The notes beneath the pieces are model-generated. The model saw only the letters and a program-made list of their open reading frames with translations, did not search any database and was not told where the DNA came from. Shown in pieces: positions 1 to 61,789 of a stretch of 64,000 nucleotides of DNA. This DNA comes from Octopus vulgaris (Eukaryota), in contig OX597835.1 of NCBI GenBank assembly GCA_951406725.2, positions 8,804,001 through 8,868,000 of the forward strand, in the 5' to 3' direction. Positions within the stretch are counted from its first letter, which is position 1; each line of letters opens with the position of its first letter. A program made the translations under genes and the position numbers.

Positions 1-1132
1 GAGAAAAAGGTGTACTTGTAGGAAGATACAAAATTTAATATTCCCCTATATCGTTATCTTCTTAAACAGCTGCAGATGGCACATAATTAAGTGATGGTAA
101 CTATACCTGCACATTAGTGGTGCCTGCACACTAGTAGAACCTAGTAATGTTCCAAATTCAGAAAATGCAATTGATACGGCAAAGTGTAGCTCTAATCAAG
201 ACAGACTAAGAAAAAAATTGTCCAATTTATATTAATTAAATATAGATTCTACAACCAGAAGACAGTTTACAGCTTCGGCAGGAAACAGGAAACGAAACAA
301 CGAATGAAATACAATATTTGGGTTTATTACTGACCTTAACATTGTTACAAGGTGTCCAATAAAAATATGCATGAATTTATTCCTACAAAATATATGCATA
401 GGATTACGTATATTTGTATATATACATGCAGATATTTATGTATCGGTCCATCTGCCTGTCTATTTGTCTATGTATGTATATGTGTATATATGTATGGATC
501 TATCTAATATATATATATACAAATATATTAGACGACTTTACTGTATATGATAATGCCCACACATCTATCGCCTTGTGGGTATATACATATGCGTGAATGG
601 GTATGCATATGTGTCCATTTATATATATATATGCACGGCTTGATGTTTACTTATAACTCGTTGCAATTCTGAACAGTTATTGACTGTGCAGTGCCACAAC
701 TTACCAATTAATGTCTAATTTGAAAAATCTTCAGATATTCTGTAATAAGATTTTTATTAATATCATTAAGTGATCTGTCTTGTAGCAATTAACTGGTCTT
801 TATTAATTAATGCTCGCTAATAATGTGTTTTCTGTTGTTATTTATTCATTTCATACATTTAAGTTTTATATTCATAAAGTCATCTCAATTTTCCAGGAAA
901 ATTTGTGCTCTTCAAATTCAAGTGTACTCTTTATTTTTCAATTTTCTTTTCCTTATTCATTATAGAAGACGTTTTGCGTTTCTGAATCATGTCTGTCTGA
1001 ATTTGGGATTGAAATCTCCCTCACACCGGCTCAAATTAACCTTTTCATTCATTTTAATTTTTTTTGTTTTTAATATCATAAATACTTAATGTGCCGATAT
1101 CAATTCATTCTGTACGTCTGTGTAAAGCTATC

Positions 1133-34607: not shown

Positions 34608-36104
34608 TTTATATATATATAAATTGCTTGACGACACAAGGCACGTTATATAATGAATTACCATGTTTCCACGATATGGCACTAATATTAACTCTGTGCA
34701 GGGGTGTTTGTACCTGATATTCCAGCCGTGTGTGCAAAAAACCGCAACCCAGCTAAGTGAAGATACTAGCCCTTGTACTTTTTATACAGGGACTCTCTAT
34801 AGCATTTCCGAAGTGCAAATTCCAAATCAGGTGAAAAGAATATAAATAAGTAACAAAGATGTATAGACAAATTCCTCTCAGTGAACATATAGAAAAATGT
34901 GCAGGTAACACCGAACCGAATTTCACAGTCCTCCCTTTCTACCAGTGCGAAGACACAGTCTCTCAACTAGAACGTTTAAATAAAGAATTTTTTTTCATTG
35001 AAAGATACAGAACACGTCTTAATATGCACGCATAACCAACTTTTATTTTTTTTACATATTTCAATTCACGATTACATCACTATACATAAATCCCCTCACT
35101 AAACAAGACTCTTCTGTCTGACTGGAATTGTATATATCGCTTTCGAAGTTATAAACATGAGAGTAGGGTTTAAATTTAATACTTATTGGAAAGTAATCAA
35201 ACATAACAAATTATTTTTACATTAGTGTTACATTATTTTCTAGAATTGTATTTAGACAGGAGATAATATTTTGACTGTTATCAGATACTTGAGTGACGGC
35301 GGTTTCGGTAGTTTGTAGACATCTTATTTTTTTGATGTCAGAATGATTCAGATTAATTAAAAATTATTAGACATGATCGCAATATATTGTAGTTAATGTT
35401 AGTGTTTTAATATAGCGATATGTGCAACGTTCTCTGAATTGCTAAAAGCTCGTCCAGCATAACGGCTGTCAAGGACAGCTGTCAGTTTTCCTGTATGATA
35501 TAAGAATAGGTTCTTCCACCAAATGTTATCTTTTGTTTATTGTCTTTACCTTCATTAATACTATGTCATATCCGTCGCTTTGCTGCCAGTAAAAACTATT
35601 TGCTCATCATGCATGTACATTCTTTTAATAATAGTGAAATTCTCAAAATTATTTAATGACAAAACATCAGTATATCTATCTATCGATCGATCGATCTATC
35701 TATCTGTCTTTCTATATATATGTATGTATGTAAATATACATACATTCATTCATTCATATATATATATATATATACACAAAATATACATGGTAAAAAAATT
35801 AGAGAAATTTTCTGCTAGTGGCTAGCATGCATAAAAGAGTCAACAGACAACATATTTTTTATATAAAATCAGTGTACATTTATACACCAAAACAGGTGAG
35901 ATTATCAGGCCACTTTACGTGCTAAAAAGAGCAGTCAAATCCCAAACCATGGTTAAGAGTAATTTCGAAGGAAATGAAAAATAAAAAACATTTTCTATAG
36001 CTACCACATGTACCTATGTCTCGAGCATTGTCAGACATGCACTGATAATTCCTGCGATTTTATTCAAAACTGTTAGGTACTATGTTGTCAGCAGTACCTA
36101 TTTA

Positions 36105-36280
36105 TGATCCCTATTGATCAACTCACCCCTTTTTTTATCCTCCCCTTTTTTTCTCCTCTTTCTTTCCTTTTACGATCCCTTTTGATCGAAAACCAACCCC
36201 CTTTTTTACCCCCAAAAGAAAAGCTCTACCTTGTAATTTGTTCTGTCTGTGTGCAGCCCTGTGTGGCTAATAAAGAAACA
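36105..36280 (+). mobile_element. probable LINE 3'UTR end resembling the SINE-B tail
   Basis: ends CTGTGTGCAGCCCTGTGTGGCTAATAAAGAAA then (TATC)n; SINE-B ends CTGTGTTTAGCCCCTTGTGGGTAATAAAGAAA. Confidence 0.5.
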
Positions 36281-36357
<77 letters not shown>

Positions 36358-36358
36358 C
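36281..36358. repeat. (TATC)n microsatellite
   Basis: direct reading. Confidence 0.95.
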
Positions 36359-38110
36359 TATACATATATATATATATTTCCCACACGCACACATCCTCTC
36401 TCAATATTATTTCTCGCTCAAAACAACCTTTCTCGTCCCTTTTTAAAAATACATTGTGACATATATTTTGATTCTTCTCTTTTCTTCCCTCCCTGAAAAC
36501 AGATGTTATGACCTGATCCGCTTCTCAATGTAGCCTATCAAAATCTTAGTACGGTAGAGGGTCGTTCCGAATGATTTTTTCCCTTAACATTACATAACAG
36601 ATAGGCTCTTGACGGTTCGTCTTCTGTAGAAATAATTTCTACCAACCGAGACCATTCAGCGTGCGGAATATATTTTTAATGCTGCAATAATTTCAAGGGG
36701 GAGGGGGGTCTTGGTAGAATCGCCTCCACCATTAACGCACTTGACTTAAGGTCTTTTACTATTATATTTCTTTCATCTACATTCTTCATTCGACTTGGTC
36801 TGAGATTGGACTAACATTAATGAAATGAAATATATTCTAATTATTATTCAGAAATTAATAACGCTGAAATGGCGGATATGGTGGTTTTCTATCTTTAAAA
36901 AATGTCTGTATTTATTTAAAGCAGGCAGCAATGTGTTGAGAATTCCCTGGATTCAACTTTATCACTCTTTCTTCAACTTTTAATTTTATATCATATTTGA
37001 ATTCTAACGGGAAACTATATAACACAGCGAACACTTTGAAATGGCACGGTGATGGAACACAACACGTTCCCATTTACCGAAATGGTTCCTTCTATCATAC
37101 GGAGAGAATACGCTTTTATAACGAAAAATGGATATTATATATGAGAGTTCTCGAAATTATGAGCAAAACCTATAAGTGATGCTTCATAAAAGATAAAGGA
37201 GCTATTTTGGAAATACGTTGTAGAGAGACTCTGATGTGTTATGCAATAATTCACTTGACATATTATAACGTGTGACATATGAAGATTGAAAAATGACAGG
37301 GTGGTGCTTAACTTTTTATATTATGCAGCTTTGAACACAATATTTTAAAGAGAAAAACATCAATGTTTACTTAATTATAAAAAAACGTTGACATTTTCAA
37401 CATAAATATTTACATATCAGCTTTGTAATCCCAACGAATCCTTTTCCATGGAATTATTACCAGCAATTGCGCGATTTAAAAGAAAAATCCTTATACGTAT
37501 ATATCTGATAAATTTTATATTTTTACTCTCTTTTTTTCTGACAGCCTGTTATTCCATACAAACAGGTATTTGTTTATTCAATTCTTTCCTTTAACCCCGA
37601 TAGTTATTTGAATGTGTGACATTTTCCTTTTCCGTATAAGTCAAAAACAAAGAGCAGGTAATAAAAGTAATAACATTCATGATGTTACAAATAGTGTAAT
37701 AGCTACTTTCATTACACTATATCACCATAAACCTGAAACAAATCAAGCGAAACTATAGAATACATCATCAGCCAATGACCAAACATAGTATGAAACACGA
37801 ATGAGAAAACAACTTAAAACATGGCTGTATGAAAAACCCGAAACTGGTGTCAGGTAAATCACTTCTAAGGAAGCCATGTCTCTCTAAGATAAATGAAGAA
37901 CGTCGCAGTTTCTCCCATGCAACACCACATTCAGCCATACTAACACTCGTTTCAGCATATATATATATATGTGTGACTGTAATGTGTATGTACGGAGAGA
38001 AATACATACATACACACACACACACATAACACTGACTTGACAAGTATGATACTATGCCTACCCCCACACACACACCCCTTTAAACTAAATGTATAAACAC
38101 ACTTGTTAAC

Positions 38111-39250: not shown

Positions 39251-39287
<37 letters not shown>

Positions 39288-49689: not shown

Positions 49690-50546
49690 AAGGCTGTTGA
49701 TCGGAATATATAAACTACGGAAATATGTCTCCTATCAATAACTAAGGAGATCTTTGCTCGCATTCTACAGAACAGACTAAGTATATCTGTCCAAAAATCT
49801 CTCCTATTTCTTTACTACCCACAAGGGGCTAAACACAGAGAGAACCAGCAAGGACAGACAAACAGATTAAGTCGGTTATATCGACCCCAGTGCGTAACTG
49901 GTACTTATTTAATCGACCCCGAAAGTATGAAAGGGAAAGTCGACATCGGCGGAAATTGAACGCAGAACGTAGCGGCAGACGAAATACCACAAAGCATTTC
50001 GCCCGCCGTGCTAACGATTCTGCCAGCTCGCCGCCTTACTAAATATCTTTCCTGAAACAGTGTAGCTATCGTTGTGGTAAAAGTAATGAGGACATCACCT
50101 TCTTCCTTCACCAAATTCAGGAAATATGCATTGAGCAGAACATGCCAAGGCATGATGAGTTCATGAACTTCACAAAGGCTTTTGACATATTATCTCGTGA
50201 TGAAATTTAACTGGTTCTCAAGGAACATGGACGTCCTCCAAGTTTCATCAATGAGGGAATGCAGGTATTTGTAGTACAAGATAGCGATAGGTCAGGCGAG
50301 TTGATATTGACAAACAGGGTGCGTACTCGCTCCAGCACTATTTTCCGTCTATCACGCTGCAGTGTTGGAAGTCCCCTTTGAAGATGTTAGGTGAAAGTAT
50401 TTACATCCAGACGCAGCATGATGCTGACCTGTTCAATGCTGCATAGTATAAAGCCAAGATGCACAATACGAAGTTCCTCGTGAGAGTGATGCTGTTCGCT
50501 GATAATACTACGCTGGTTGCCCTCTGCTGTGAAGATACGTGGAAAC

Positions 50547-56357: not shown

Positions 56358-56741
56358 GTGGAGGCGCAATGACCTAGTGGTTAAGGCAGCGGACTCACGG
56401 ATATAGGATCGCGGTTTCGATTCCCAGACCGGGCGTTGTGAGTGTTTATTGAGCGAAAACACCTGAAGCTCCACGAGGCTCCGGCAGGGGATGGTGGTGT
56501 CCCCTGCTGTACTCCTTCACCACAACCTTCTCTCACTCTTACTTCCTGTTTCTGTTGTACCTTGTATTTCAAAGGGCCGGCCTTGTCACTCTCTGTGTCA
56601 CGCTGAATATCCCCGAGAACTACGTTAAGGGTACACGTGTCTGTGGAGTGCTCAGCCACTTACACGTTAATTTCACGAGCAGGCTGTTCCGTTGATTCGG
56701 GTCAACCGGAACCCTCGTCGTCGTAACCAACGGAGTGCTTC
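56358..56741 (+). mobile_element. SINE family C, full length
   Basis: near-identical to 31478-31862; TSD TACAGTGG(T/C)TAGA at 56345-56357/56742-56754. Confidence 0.92.
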
Positions 56742-56906
56742 TACAGTGGCTAGATATAAAATACTGGGTCATCCAATAAATAATGCAAATGCGCAAATGT
56801 GATTATAATATCAGCATTTAAACTTATATGAAATATATACGCAGTATAGATATTTTCAAGTGCGCGTACGAAACATTTATATAGAGCATTCTTACAAAAG
56901 TAATAA

Positions 56907-58946
56907 GACGTCAAGCTGGCAGAACCGTTAGCACGCCGGGCGAAATGCTTAGCGGTATTTCGTCTACCGTTACGTTCTGAGTTCAAATTCCGCCGAGGTC
57001 GACTATGCTTTTCATCCTTTCGGGGTCGATAAATTAATTACCAGTTACGCACCGGGGTCGATATAATCGACTTAATCCGTTTGTCTGTCCTTGTTTGTCC
57101 CCTCTGTGTTTAGCCCCTTGTGGGCAGTAAAGAAATAGGTATTTCGTCTGCCGTTACGTTCTGAGTTCAAATTCCGCCGAGGTCGACTTTGCTTTTCATC
57201 CTTTCGGGGTCGATAAATTAATTACCAGTTACGCACCGGGGTCGATATAATCGACTTAATCCCTTTGTCTGTCCTTGTTTGTCCCCTCTGTGTTTAGCCC
57301 CTTGTGGGCAGTAAAGAAATAGGTATTTCGTCTGCCGTTACGTTCTGAGTTCAAATTCCGCCGAGGTCGACTTTGCTTTTCATCCTTTCGGGGTCTATAA
57401 ATTAATTACCAGTTACGAACTGGGGTCGATATAATCGACTTAATCCGTTTGTCTGTCCTTGTTTGTCCCCTCTGTGTTTAGTCCCTTGTGGGTAATAAAG
57501 AAATAGGTATTTCGTCTGCCGTTACGTTCTGAGTTCAAATTCCGCCGAGGTCGACTTTGCTTTTCATCCTTTCGGGGTCGATAAATTAATTACCAGTTAC
57601 GAACTGGGGTCGATATAATCGACTTAATCCGTTTGTCTGTCCTTGTTTGTTCCCTCTGTGTTTAGCCCCTTGTGGGCAGTAAAGAAATAGGTATTTCGTC
57701 TGCCGTTACGTTCTGAGTTCAAATTCCGCCGAGGTAGACTTTGCCTTTCATCCTTTCGGGGTCGATAAATTAAGTACCAGTTACGCACTGGGGTCGATGT
57801 AATCGACTTAATCCCTTTGTCTGTCCTTGTTTGTCCCCTCTGTGCTTAACCCCTTGTGGGCAGTAAAGAAATAGGTATTTCGTCTGCCGTTACGTTCAGA
57901 GTTCAAATTCCGCCGAGGTCGACTTTGCTTTTCATCCTTTCGGGGTCTATAAATTAATTACCAGTTACGAACTGGGGTCGATATAATCGACTTAATCCGT
58001 TTGTCTGTCCTTGTTTGTTCCCTCTGTGTTTAGCCCCTTGTGGGCAGTAAAGAAATAGATATTTCGTCTGCCGTTACGTTCTGAGTTGTAATTCCGCCGA
58101 GGTCGACTTTGCTTTTCATCCTTTCGGGGTCGATAAATTAATTACCAGTTACGAACTGGGGTCGATATAATCGACTTAATCCCTTTGTCTGTCCTTGTTT
58201 GTCCCCTCTGTGTTTAGCCCCTTGTGGGCAGTAAAGAAATAGGTATTTCGTCTGCCGTTACGTTCTGAGTTCAAATTCCGCCGAGGTCGACTTTGCTTTT
58301 CATCCTTTCGGGGTCTATAAATTAATTACCAATTACGCACCGGGGTCGATATAATCGACTTAATCTGTTTGTCTGTCCTTGTTTGTCCCCTCTGTGTTTA
58401 GCCCCTTGTGGGCAGTAAAGAAATAGGTATTTCGTCTGCCGTTACGTTCTGAGTTCAAATTCCGCCGAGGACGACGTTGCTTTTCATCCTTTCGGGGTCG
58501 ATAAATTAATTACCAGTTACGCACCGGGGTCGATATAATCGACTTAATCCGTTTGTCTGTCCTTGTTTGTCCCCTCTGTGTTTAGCCCCTTGTGGGCAGT
58601 AAAGAAATAGGTATTTCGTCTGCCGTTACGTTCTGAGTTCAAATTCCGCCGAGGACGACGTTGCTTTTCATCCTTTCGGGGTCGATAAATTAATTACCAG
58701 TTACGCACCGGGGTCGATATAATCGGCTTAATCCGTTTGTCTGTCCTTGTTTGTCCCTTCTATGTTTAGTCCCTTGTGGGTAGTAAAGAAATAGGCATTT
58801 TTGTCTGTCTTTATGTTCTGAGTTCAAATTCCATCATGGTTGTCTTTGCTTTTTTATCCTTTTGGTGTCGATAAACTAAGCAACAGTCGATCGTATTGTC
58901 TGGCCCCCTCTCCCAAAATTTGGACCCTGTACCTAGAGTAGAAAAG
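56907..58946 (+). repeat. SINE-B-derived tandem array: one head, 10 x 184-bp units, one diverged terminal unit
   Basis: unit starts at 56954, 57138, 57322, 57506, 57690, 57874, 58058, 58242, 58426, 58610; diverged unit from 58794; flanked by ATTCTTA(C/T)AAAAG. Confidence 0.95.
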
Positions 58947-59821
58947 ATTCTTATAAAAGCTGAATCCATCTACTTATAGAAGTATAGAATTATAGAACTG
59001 CAGAATATTTTGCTCGATCGGATGGCTTAAGTTTGCAGTTAAACATTGTACCAAGTTGTATTCGATCATGCTGATTATTAGATTTCAATAGATTTGTGTT
59101 ATTATTTACATTGTTGATTCTAGGTGGTGTACGAATGTATGTTTGTGTGCGTGTGTGTATGTGTGTTTGTATAAAGCCACAAACGTGTTTGCTCTTATAC
59201 GCAGTCATATCTACACTTGCATATTAACACAAATACATATTTATACCATTATGTACTTACATATATATGTGCTACGTAACTTATTTCGTTTTCCCCTTTT
59301 TGGTACGAGAATGAAAATAGAATTTCTCTTGACATATTTTGATGCGCGGAACACGAATCAGTTATGCATATATTAGGCACGAATGAATTATGCACGAATC
59401 AATAATGCAGGTAGGAGTCGAAATGTTATTTCAGTGACTAAATAATTCAGACGCACACTGAAAATGGAGGACTTTAACTAATTCAGTTCAATATCGATGT
59501 ACGGAATATAACGGCCATGTAAGAGTTAATTGTATGTAATTATATATTGTGAATAAATAATGTTATTGAATACTTAATACTTGTCCCATCATTAATTCAT
59601 TGTGATGCATTAGCCAGTCTTGTATTCGATGGGAAAGATTATTTGTTGCTGATCAGTACAATACAACATTGAAAAATGTCTGAATTTATCTCCTGAGTTA
59701 AGCAGACATATAATGTGAATAGAATGTTATTTGTATGAGAATATCAATTCCTATCAACTGAATTTTATTCTTTTAGATAATACATTTAATGGTCTTTTTA
59801 TTAATCAAATGCACAGCAATG

Positions 59822-60355: not shown

Positions 60356-60587
60356 GGCGGTGGGCTGGCAGAAACGTTAGCACGCCGGGCGAAATGCTTA
60401 GCAGTATTACGTCTGCGTTACGTTGTGAGTTCAAATTCCGCCGAGGTCGACTTTGCCTTTCATCCTTTCGGGGTCGATAAATTAAGTACCAGCTACGCAC
60501 TGGGGTTGATGTAATCGACTTAATACCTATGTATGTCCTTGTTTGTCCCCTCTGTGTTTAGCCCCTTGTGGGTAATAAAGAAATAGG
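60356..60587 (+). mobile_element. SINE family B, full-length monomer
   Basis: head GGCGGTGGGCTGGCAGAAACG, B box GAGTTCAAATTCC; TSD GTATATCCTTTCAA at 60323-60336/60589-60602. Confidence 0.92.
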
Positions 60588-61789
60588 TGTATATCCTTTC
60601 AACTGAGATAATGGCAGGTTCAGAATGTAGACTATTCTTATTAATCAAGAGAAATTGGAAATGAAGACGGGACCGAACTGAATACCACAGATCTGCATTT
60701 CTAACTTCTTCGATTTACTTATCATTCAGCTCTTAACATTCCTATTTATTTCTCACAAAGATTTACCACACAGCTACTACATATTTTTACGAAATATCAT
60801 ATCTGTTGACGAATATTATTTTAAAATTCTACTATTGTTCAGCGACACTTCTAGTCACCTCTTTCGCAACAGTATTAAGGTATCATGTCACGTTGTGTAA
60901 TAATTCTCCTGTTTACATACCGTACTACCTGCTGCTTCTGATAGCATCTAACGCAACCAATTACAATTCCTAAAATGGAAATATAAGCAATGATGTAGTC
61001 ACAGCACACCAGAATGATCTGCCGATAAAATTTCTGATTTTTCTGTCTCCAATTACAAATAAGGGAATATTTTTCTAGATGTTTATAGTCATTTCACTCA
61101 TTGACATTAATTTTCGCATGTTTAATAAAACTTAACGTGTATTGCACAAAGATCGTTGCAAATATTTGTCATAAAAAAAAATCAACGCTTCAACGAATTT
61201 ATAATATACTTCTAAATATTCATATATTGTAGAAATACCTATAAAACAATTTCTTAACATTCAATAGCACTTTGCATAATCAGAATGTAAGAAAGTTCAT
61301 TACATTGCTCTCAATGCCACCGTTATAGTAAATGAATTATGGAAGTATTATGAATGTGTCACAAATGCCCCGTCGGCGAGCTGCCAACGTTTGCTAATTT
61401 TAAATATATGCTGTTTAACCTTTATCATATAAATGTGTTTCTAAATTTAATATCAATTGATTAATATGAATTTAAATCCAGAGGTCTTGCATATTTAAAA
61501 ATCTGAAGTTTCAAAAAATATATATATTACATACATATAAAAAGGATGACCTGTAAGTGGTCATCCATTATGCTAGAAGAAGATCCGCTATGGATCTTTA
61601 CCCAGTACATTTATATATGTATATTGTACACAGTATAAAGATGTGATCTACTAGACACGGCTCTCCAAAAGTGAACATTTACTGATATCCATCTCTCACT
61701 GGATGGAGTATTTCTTTTCTCTATCTTACCTTGAAGGAACAGTAAACAACGAATACATATATATGTGTGTGTGTGTATGTGTGTACTGG

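Follow-up and report, generated by a model that had tools for sequence, protein, structure and literature searches.

How a dispersed SINE comes to form tandem DNA is the question raised by a locus of Octopus vulgaris, at which ten 184-bp SINE units, all devoid of a tRNA-like head, follow one single head and precede a more diverged body inside one target-site duplication. The locus lies in a window of 64,000 nucleotides (assembly GCA_951406725.2, contig OX597835.1, positions 8,804,001 to 8,868,000 of the forward strand), to which all positions given below refer. A preliminary description, made from the sequence alone, proposed that an old SINE had been targeted repeatedly at one internal site by RNAs of young SINEs joined by homology or, alternatively, that a 184-nt circle had been copied by rolling-circle reverse transcription. 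We hold a composite account to be rather probable: the array was seeded by the insertion of a young SINE of the family here called A into the head/body boundary of an old SINE of its sister family B, and nine of its units were then multiplied in place.

Anatomy of the array and its counterparts in the genome

Each 184-bp A unit consists of a 119-nt core and a 65-nt tail ending in AAAGAAATA. The terminal unit has the core in common with the A units and a different tail, and it stands in register at the same site. A single array was found by TRF, at 56954-58879 (period 184, 10.5 copies, 95% matches), which together with direct reading confirms the layout first described, namely a head, ten headless units, a diverged eleventh and one pair of ATTCTTA(C/T)AAAAG repeats (Table 1).

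Table 1. Components of the SINE array, in window positions
Feature	Positions	Strand	Remarks
Left outer target-site duplication ATTCTTACAAAAG	56888..56900	+	Read directly; 12/13 identical to 58947-58959; abuts head
tRNA-like SINE head, 53 nt, end GCTTAGC	56901..56953	+	Read directly
Units 1-4, 184-bp headless A	56954..57689	+	Starts 56954, 57138, 57322, 57506
Unit 5, apparently foreign A unit	57690..57873	+	Outside clade of the other nine
Units 6-10, A	57874..58793	+	Starts 57874, 58058, 58242, 58426, 58610
Unit 11, old headless body of sister family B	58794..58946	+	Start GGCATTTTTGTC, tail CCCTCTCCCAAAATT..AGTAGAAAAG
Right outer target-site duplication ATTCTTATAAAAG	58947..58959	+	Read directly; 12/13 identical to left copy

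The joint between units, AAAGAAATAGGTATTTCGTC, is present in eight exact copies and one with a single mismatch (GATATTT, unit 7), spaced by 184-bp steps; all nine matches in the window fall inside the array, and none of 100 shuffled sequences yielded any match. The array head shows four differences from the consensus of the sampled heads within its first ~15 nt and a single one, at a polymorphic place, over the remaining 38 nt. RNA folding predicts an anticodon-like hairpin in which GGGCGAAAUGCU of the head forms a stem with GGUAUUUCGUCU of the body; this stem closes the loop UAGC, at whose 3' edge the joint is situated. The body also contains GAGTTCAAATTCC, which resembles the B-box consensus. 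ARAGORN predicted no tRNA in the window and the Rfam scan returned no match with E up to 1. The folds of two monomers had the same stability as those of shuffled sequences (z -0.12 and +0.29), so that a panhandle between the tail and the unit start is without statistical support. The window also contains monomers, at 60357-60588 and 49805-50035, each bracketed by its own duplication of 13-16 bp.

The joint is far from unique to this locus, as the preliminary description expected of a recurrent mechanism: the 20-mer made of AAAGAAATA followed directly by GGTATTTCGTC is matched exactly at 39,269 places of the 2.8-Gb genome and its backwards control at none. Family A is dispersed and of high copy number, with 113,523 exact 22-nt tails in the genome, 25,999 of which (at least 23%) are followed by GGTATTTCGTC; the 20-mer spanning head and unit has 27,735 matches, fewer than the joint. 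We sampled composites in the window and in 72 non-overlapping loci from the first 100 listed joints (344 kb), and counted 64 clean ones, composites with partial pieces being left out. They comprise AA (22), AAA (11), AAAA (5) and AAAAA (2) on the one hand, and AB (18), AAB (3), AAAB (2) and A10B (1, the present array) on the other, the layout head-(A)n-old headless B thus representing 24 of the 64. The array studied here is an ordinary member of a genome-wide population and no exception.

Insertion at the head/body boundary and age of the B units

The point at which full-length A copies enter older SINEs is exactly the boundary GCTTAGC/GGTATTTCG (context ..GAAATGCTTAGC/GGTATTTCGTCTGCCG, that is GCTTAGC/GGTATTTCGTCTGCCG), and the insertion duplicates 15-16 bp, which are the first body bases of the older copy itself. 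The pattern of an old head followed within 0-30 nt by the start of a new head has 40 matches; reading by eye revealed 15-17 nt of body kept ahead of the new head in 19 of them, and 12 of the 16 loci fetched for this pattern display the order head, head, unit, tail, unit. Two loci are particularly explicit. At L066, an old diverged head ending in ..GCTTGGC leads into a new 5'-truncated head with two A units, after which comes the old body starting with GGTATTTCATCC. At L192, where the old B is bracketed by an outer duplication, a private variant of the old copy, TTTCATCTGCC, is found in both copies of the inner duplication, whereas the inserted A has TTTCGTCTGCG. Heads stacked with a period of 64-65 bp, such as three heads followed by four units at L179, show that the site has been used more than once at individual loci, with the reservation that such runs can also grow unaided. 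Ordinary A insertions favour xRTAT at the start of their target: this motif was counted manually in 17 of 42 flanks following terminal A tails, against a window background of 4%. RTAT occurs once in the head plus A consensus, at unit position 2, as GGTAT at the joint. The part of the initial proposal according to which young copies enter an internal site of older ones is thereby upheld.

The age of the B units is in line with their role as targets. The divergence of unit 11 from the consensus of its family amounts to 13% at non-CpG and 37% at CpG positions, compared with 2-6% and 0-8% for units 1-10. Its best non-self match in the genome is 83% identical (40 scored of 1,759 candidates), and with no closer relative among those scored it appears to have aged in place, in agreement with the foreign, old terminal unit of the preliminary description. 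The same contrast is found over the 24 A..B composites, in which B is more diverged than the adjacent A at non-CpG (8.4% vs 5.8%) and CpG positions (16.6% vs 7.5%; paired Wilcoxon p=0.0002). Restricting the comparison to the cores gives an agreeing result (non-CpG/CpG, B 7.9/15.6 vs A 5.8/7.3; solo B 8.2/21.4), and the cores of composite and solo B have an identical consensus. In pure A arrays, the age of the last unit did not differ significantly from that of the first (5.7 vs 5.0, p=0.11).

These ages bear on an origin in one event, whereby a whole head-(A)n-B structure would result from a single retrotransposition, either of a multi-unit transcript or through template jumping by the reverse transcriptase, which on reaching the 5' end of one headless RNA would resume at the 3' end of another, the variants being redistributed by later unequal exchange. 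A single head and a single outer duplication are what this origin would leave, the copy numbers of pure A composites drop roughly geometrically (22, 11, 5, 2), and arrays 5'-truncated inside the head or a unit do occur (L043, L055, L058, L074, L020, L050). TTTT is absent from the A consensus, so polymerase III would read through internal tails and arrays can also spread as multi-unit transcripts; consequently, some of the 39,269 joints may not stem from an insertion of their own. The structure is, however, not of a single age as a one-event concatemer would be: unit 11 is older, unit 5 is foreign, and B units are older than the neighbouring A units in the 24 composites. The absence of any relative of unit 11 above 83% identity (40 scored of 1,759) also argues against recent copying from another locus, the B cores of composites have no separate consensus, and no B tail directly preceding a headless unit was found in the 344 kb, a sample chosen on the A-tail joint. 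Moreover, template jumps are not needed to account for the precision of the joint, for which the duplication footprints suffice. We therefore regard an origin in one event as unlikely.

Under the preferred account of seeding by insertion, the fate of the old head has to be explained, given that seamless joints outnumber duplicated-head footprints by about 100:1 after a rough correction. The seamless joint is the commonest outcome, and its mechanism is an inferred one. In divergence, the heads of 20 A..B composites are on a par with the young heads of A (6.0/9.4 vs 5.8/11.9; solo B heads 7.8/31.2, n=8), and in most composites checked the first bases of unit 1 are the A-type GTCTGCCG, as opposed to GTCTGTCT in the B unit. 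In seamless composites, young sequence makes up the head as well as the 16 nt that open unit 1, and the old head appears to have been replaced. Under the simplest homology model, both stretches should have been retained in their old form. If the extra head were lost through unequal exchange, hybrid heads with an old 5' part and a new 3' part would be expected. The first 12 nt of the head are slightly more diverged in arrays than in monomers (22.5% vs 15.9%, p=0.03), those of monomers being elevated too, and the next 12 nt are not more diverged in arrays than in monomers.

A tentative sequence of events can be drawn. The endonuclease of a LINE would make two nicks, one in the bottom strand right at the boundary and one in the top strand, 15-16 nt further downstream, and in the seamless outcome the new head would replace the old one, except perhaps its first ~12 nt, either while the far end of the cDNA joins or at a later time. 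No pre-insertion allele was seen at the locus, at which contigs of two related organisms hold the head and unit 11. Contigs of four runs, compared with 56500-59400, were swamped by SINE copies, with no piece spanning the array, and in three more distant organisms the head-side flank was without contig cover.

Probable multiplication of the units in place

A table of variant positions bears out the mosaic distribution noticed at first: GGGTCTATAA (T at position 75) is found in units 3, 6 and 8, GGACGACGTT (A at position 46, G at position 51) in units 9 and 10, and unit 5 is monomer-like. Positions 56, 85 and 110 set this unit apart, as it alone among the ten A units retains the common state there and the nine others carry derived states. 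T at position 56 is present in 9 of the 10 array units and 11 of 167 other units, and T at position 85 in 9 of 10 and 3 of 167, respectively; further rare states are common to subsets of the array units. A 35-mer covering positions 56 and 85 occurs 21 times in the genome, nine times in the array and twelve times elsewhere as singletons. A tree built from 177 A units groups these nine to the exclusion of all others, unit 5 included (support 0.94), and resolves them into two nested subclades, X (units 1, 2, 8, 9 and 10) and Y (units 3, 4, 6 and 7), which follow one another along the array as X X Y Y (5) Y Y X X X. On the basis of this exclusive clade and of a haplotype nearly private to the array, the nine units were probably multiplied in place by unequal exchange, and unit 5 looks like a foreign unit that arrived separately. 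Local relatedness is also seen across arrays, with a distance of 7.4% within arrays vs 10.4% between them, and with the nearest neighbour lying in the same array for 45 of the 122 array units outside the window. The growth may have proceeded by unequal crossover or replication slippage, and unit 5 may stem from another insertion, at a joint inside the array, or from conversion with a copy located elsewhere as donor.

The tree also weighs on the possibility that all ten units were built up by repeated insertion of young SINE RNAs with no amplification at the DNA level. Insertion at the site is real and frequent, the site is recreated at the start of each unit, unit 5 is of the dispersed type, and stacked heads as at L179 would fit, although such runs can grow by themselves. 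Independent RNAs of a dispersed family would nevertheless not be expected to produce an exclusive clade with nested subclades, nor a haplotype that nine units have in common and that has just 12 further occurrences in a genome with over 100,000 tails, and the nearest relatives found within the same array for 45 of the 122 units outside the window speak against it too. This build-up seems to us quite improbable, and of the ten hits by dispersed RNAs initially suggested, a separate one is retained for unit 5 alone. The preliminary description had regarded a joint unique to the locus, together with a locus-specific clade explained by unequal crossover, as evidence against repeated targeting; the clade was found and the joint, with its 39,269 matches, is widespread. 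Re-insertion into the array of RNAs made by the array itself would produce such a pattern as well, and the available data do not separate this from exchange.

In favour of rolling-circle copying from a circular RNA of 184 nt, made of body and tail and closed between A184 and G1, one may cite the position of the joint at the anticodon-like hairpin loop and the complementarity of tail GAAATA to TATTTC (unit positions 3-8) and of GGCAG to CTGCC, pairings that bring the unit ends together. This mechanism is nevertheless scarcely credible: the folds are no more stable than shuffles, arrays begin with a head in the proper register and finish at an older element or a natural tail rather than in any arbitrary phase, the array has a foreign middle unit and nested subclades, and the duplication footprints, which a circle would not leave, already account for the joint.

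Candidate partner LINE, related systems and significance

The last ~43 nt of the A tail match the 3' ends of resident LINEs, putatively of L1/Tx1 type by their domain content. At 19 of 30 loci with a zf-RVT match, a stretch 77-86% identical to A-tail positions ~23-65 lies on the same strand, ~0.55 kb downstream, and ends in ..GGGTAATAAAGAAAT. One full LINE copy encodes an ORF1 with a zinc knuckle and an ORF2 of 1132 aa with Exo_endo_phos, RVT_1 and zf-RVT domains. L1-Tx1 elements are listed among the recently active LINEs of O. vulgaris (PMC13282606). The best RVT_1 matches, considered as partners, belonged to other LINE families without an A-type tail. A LINE inserted at the boundary was not encountered: one variant of the LINE-type tail followed by GGTA had no match in the genome, and none of the 19 LINE 3' ends abuts GGTATTTCG. 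Candidates for such an insertion were discarded, as heads with no body next to them (646 matches) were SINE subfamily variants, e.g. AGCATTTCG, at 28 of 30 loci read and SINE variants or small deletions at all of ten further loci, tails without a preceding CTT (385 matches) were nearly all a 14-bp deletion variant, and heads broken after GCTGGC (97 matches) were SINE variants.

Three systems share some of these traits. SINEU-3 of crocodilians (Kojima 2015, PMC4494074) likewise inserts at a fixed site of an abundant repeat with a duplication of constant size (16 bp, against 15-17 nt here), produces tandem copies by sequential hits, and is attributed to a Tx1-group LINE on shared features. Its target is however a Mariner DNA transposon and not a member of its own family, its tandem copies sandwich the duplication and keep their heads where the octopus joints are mostly seamless and headless, the octopus arrays, unlike those of SINEU-3, reach ten or more units, and a LINE was seen at the same target, where none was found in octopus. 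In the TSD1-(SINE)n-TSD1 arrays of the blood clam Scapharca broughtonii (Martelossi et al. 2024, PMC11481361), which count 4-15 units, the first unit also has a complete tRNA head and the inner units are cut at one head position within one duplication pair. The first and inner units nonetheless lack the 3' tail that octopus units keep in full, and about 3% of high-scoring SINEs are involved, compared with at least 23% of exact tails preceding a unit in octopus. Unequal recombination is favoured by the authors, whereas the octopus cut is a demonstrated insertion site. Squamate SINE satellites (Vassetzky et al. 2023, PMC10702118) are also tandem repeats made from SINE parts. They are proposed to go back to an initial duplication, ascribed to unequal recombination or to an insertion that hit the same locus by chance, with later amplification and incomplete homogenisation; in octopus, the first joint would be seeded, at tens of thousands of loci, by the site preference of the SINE. 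A full-text search of the literature, limited to main texts, retrieved no SINE targeting its own head and no 184-bp arrays in octopods, and neither is mentioned in the portion consulted of a 2026 repeat annotation of O. vulgaris.

Taken at the scale of the genome, the data outline a SINE family that would be its own preferred landing pad, a reading whose chances we judge to be even. A borrowed endonuclease would cut at the loop of an anticodon-like hairpin, each hit would overwrite the head and add one 184-bp headless unit, and local exchange would turn the product into satellite-like arrays at tens of thousands of loci. If this is true, a dispersed element makes tandem DNA through its own insertion rule. 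The usual account of the passage from SINE to satellite invokes a first duplication by chance, whereas the first joint is here likely to result from the target choice of the element. With the site carried within the element itself and ~39,000 such joints, this is a likely route from SINE to satellite DNA, and the step from SINE to array would become directly testable. For annotation, it implies that to class these arrays either as mere tandem repeats or as mere SINE copies would be inaccurate, and that counts or ages of SINE insertions based on them will be off.

Organization of the array and recurrence of its joint

The layout of the preliminary description (repeat, head, ten 184-bp units, diverged eleventh body, repeat) was matched by a direct read and a tandem-repeat scan of the window (G000:C22:8804001-8868000), and nothing in the array region was recognized by ARAGORN or Rfam.

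Components of the array and adjacent repeat (window coordinates)
Feature	Position	Description
Left repeat	opens the span 56888-58959	13 bp, ATTCTTACAAAAG
Head		tRNA-like, 53 nt, directly after the left repeat
Units 1-10		exactly 184 bp, GGTATTTCGTC to AAAGAAATA; unit 7 begins GATATTT
Unit 11		in-register start, different tail, body far more diverged than units 1-10
Right-hand repeat		ATTCTTATAAAAG, closes the array
Upstream repeat	56549-56740	just upstream of the array; another highly abundant repeat (very deep contig coverage)

The annotated sample (the window and 72 non-overlapping loci, 344 kb) contains two SINE families, A and B, that share both the head and the opening 119 nt of the body. 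The family A tail, 65 nt ending in AAAGAAATA, gives the 184-bp unit, and that of family B, of about 45 nt and unlike A, resembles the tail of unit 11. Shorter A units of about 170-174 bp, which carry a deletion within the opening third of the tail (TCC/GTTTGTCCCC; 385 exact genome matches), are intermixed with 184-bp units in arrays and occur genome-wide (e.g. L072, L073, L013, L021, L023, L007 and L052).

The preliminary description had proposed a genome-wide search for the junction between units, which proved recurrent and not unique: in 2.8 Gb (227 contigs), a 20-mer spanning the joint had 39,269 exact matches (backwards control, 0), GGTATTTCGTC directly followed 25,999 of 113,523 exact 22-nt A tails, and the corresponding head/body 20-mer had 27,735 matches, these three counts being lower bounds. 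The same kind of joint (57137 to 56954) is present in contigs of other organisms. The initial 4.7 Mb of contig 1 contains three places with arrays of at least six consecutive joints. Among 64 clean composites, a count leaving out those with partial pieces and, owing to sampling by exact joint, uninformative on monomers, pure A arrays comprised two (22), three (11), four (5) or five units (2), and A units were followed by one headless B as AB (18), AAB (3), AAAB (2) and A10B (1, the window). The “foreign old terminal unit” remarked on previously is thus a recurrent layout, since A-then-headless-B composites recur in the sample. At L036 (G000:C1:1773100-1777500), about 70 nt of the flank upstream of a four-unit array, together with a unit start, occur again after the array, which suggests a larger tandem duplication taking in the flank.

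A copies insert at the head/body boundary of older SINEs

Insertion of A copies at the boundary of older SINEs is seen directly, as an ordinary staggered-cut insertion at one position. At locus L066, an old diverged head ends exactly at the boundary and is followed by a 5'-truncated new head, two A units and the old body from GGTATTTCATCC. At L192, the private TTTCATCTGCC of the old copy is found in both copies of an inner 15-16-nt duplication, the inserted A copy carries TTTCGTCTGCG, and the old B element is bracketed by an outer duplication. The pattern of an old head with a new head starting at most 30 nt further on has 40 genome matches, 19 of which (counted by eye) keep 15-17 nt of body ahead of the new head, and 12 of 16 fetched loci show the order head, head, unit, tail, unit. 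In 24 A..B composites the B unit is more diverged than the adjacent A unit (non-CpG/CpG, 8.4/16.6% vs 5.8/7.5%; p=0.0002), B remains the older when only the shared core is compared, and the B-core consensus is identical in composites and solo copies. The two loci, the duplication footprints and the greater age of B support the targeted seeding proposed earlier.

Head-only runs with a period of 64-65 bp (head and first ~16 nt of body) occur at L185, L183, L179 and L182, with up to eight heads at L185 (G000:C10:17994800-17997800); a head duplicated by full-length insertion appears to expand as its own tandem repeat.

In seamless composites, which lack a duplicated head, both the head and the opening 16 nt of unit 1 belong to the young type, so the resident head would have been replaced; loss of the duplicated head by unequal exchange predicts hybrid heads. 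A weak excess of change is limited to the first 12 nt of array heads (22.5% vs 15.9% in monomers, p=0.03), and the window head differs from the consensus at 4 of its first 15 bases and 1 of the next 38. Replacement could possibly occur while the cDNA end is joined.

Probable growth of the array in place

T at unit positions 56 and 85 occurs in 9/10 array units vs 11/167 and 3/167 other units, and the 35-mer over both positions has 21 genome copies, nine in the array and 12 singletons. The phylogeny of units and dispersed copies, advocated in the preliminary description, placed these nine units among 177 A units as an exclusive clade (support 0.94), divided into subclades X (units 1, 2, 8, 9, 10) and Y (units 3, 4, 6, 7), and unit 5 apart, amid dispersed units without a supported sister. 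The order X X Y Y (5) Y Y X X X fits local spread of variants and one unit of separate origin, and an array grown mostly in place suits these data. In other arrays, units differ by 7.4% from array mates vs 10.4% from other units, and 45/122 have an array mate as their nearest neighbour. No significant age gradient was found along pure A arrays.

Unit 11 argues against an origin of the whole head-A10-B structure in one event: its best other genome match, among 40 scored of 1,759 candidates, is 83% identical, so that it appears to have aged in place with no recent copying from elsewhere. The head and unit 11 are already at the array locus in contigs of two related organisms; the flank adjoining the head was not covered by contigs from more distant organisms. 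From the earlier interpretation, targeted seeding is retained; ten-fold iterative insertion is not borne out, nine units being an exclusive clade with a nearly private T56/T85 haplotype, and a rolling-circle origin of the ten units is not supported.

Multi-unit transcripts may also spread arrays, because the A consensus is without TTTT. In units 1-4 and 6-10, a shared C>T at position 56 makes such a run, which might end polymerase III transcripts within each unit.

Target preference, partner LINE and known systems

Flanks after terminal A tails begin with xRTAT in 17/42 cases (hand count) vs 4% of window positions, and the sole RTAT of the head+A and head+B consensus sequences is the GGTAT at the joint. 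In the predicted fold, head and body pair in a 12-bp hairpin, and this site falls at the 3' edge of its loop. A second recurrent joint, at odds with the xRTAT preference, links the A tail to a head starting at AGAAACGTTAGC, within the A-box-like part; it represents 6/42 non-unit flanks (L004, L013, L032, L039, L057 and L008, on G000:C1) and is frequent in contigs of other organisms (57137 to 56926/56927).

Around zf-RVT matches, 19/30 loci carry, on the same strand and about 0.55 kb downstream, a segment with 77-86% identity to the final ~43 nt of the A tail; it terminates in GGGTAATAAAGAAAT and a few variable bases. In one full LINE copy, ORF1 carries a zinc knuckle and the 1132-aa ORF2 has endonuclease, RT and zf-RVT domains. 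The A tail is thus LINE-derived, and the LINE is probably of L1/Tx1 kind. Pattern searches for interrupted heads or tails, RVT_1 matches and one LINE-type tail followed by GGTA did not find the partner LINE at the boundary. Five zf-RVT matches on one strand in steps of about 5.4 kb (G000:C2:73046133-73068136) look like head-to-tail stacked LINE copies. Short elements with an A-tail-like 3' end (..GTGTGGCTAATAAAGAAAC) lie within (TATC)n microsatellites (window 36060-36360; L034 2950-3260; L056, minus strand) and resemble a sister tail family that uses a different target.

SINEU-3 is described as a site-specific SINE riding Tx1 LINEs, forming tandem copies by sequential hits on a Mariner element (PMC4494074). 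The account of blood clam arrays reports a single full head, inner units cut within the head and a single duplication pair, ascribed to recombination, with tails that are cut, unlike those of the present array (PMC11481361), and satellites derived from SINEs are known from squamates (PMC10702118). A full-text literature search found no paper on a SINE targeting its own family, nor on these octopod arrays. Within the large and interesting population of such arrays, the one in the window is unexceptional.
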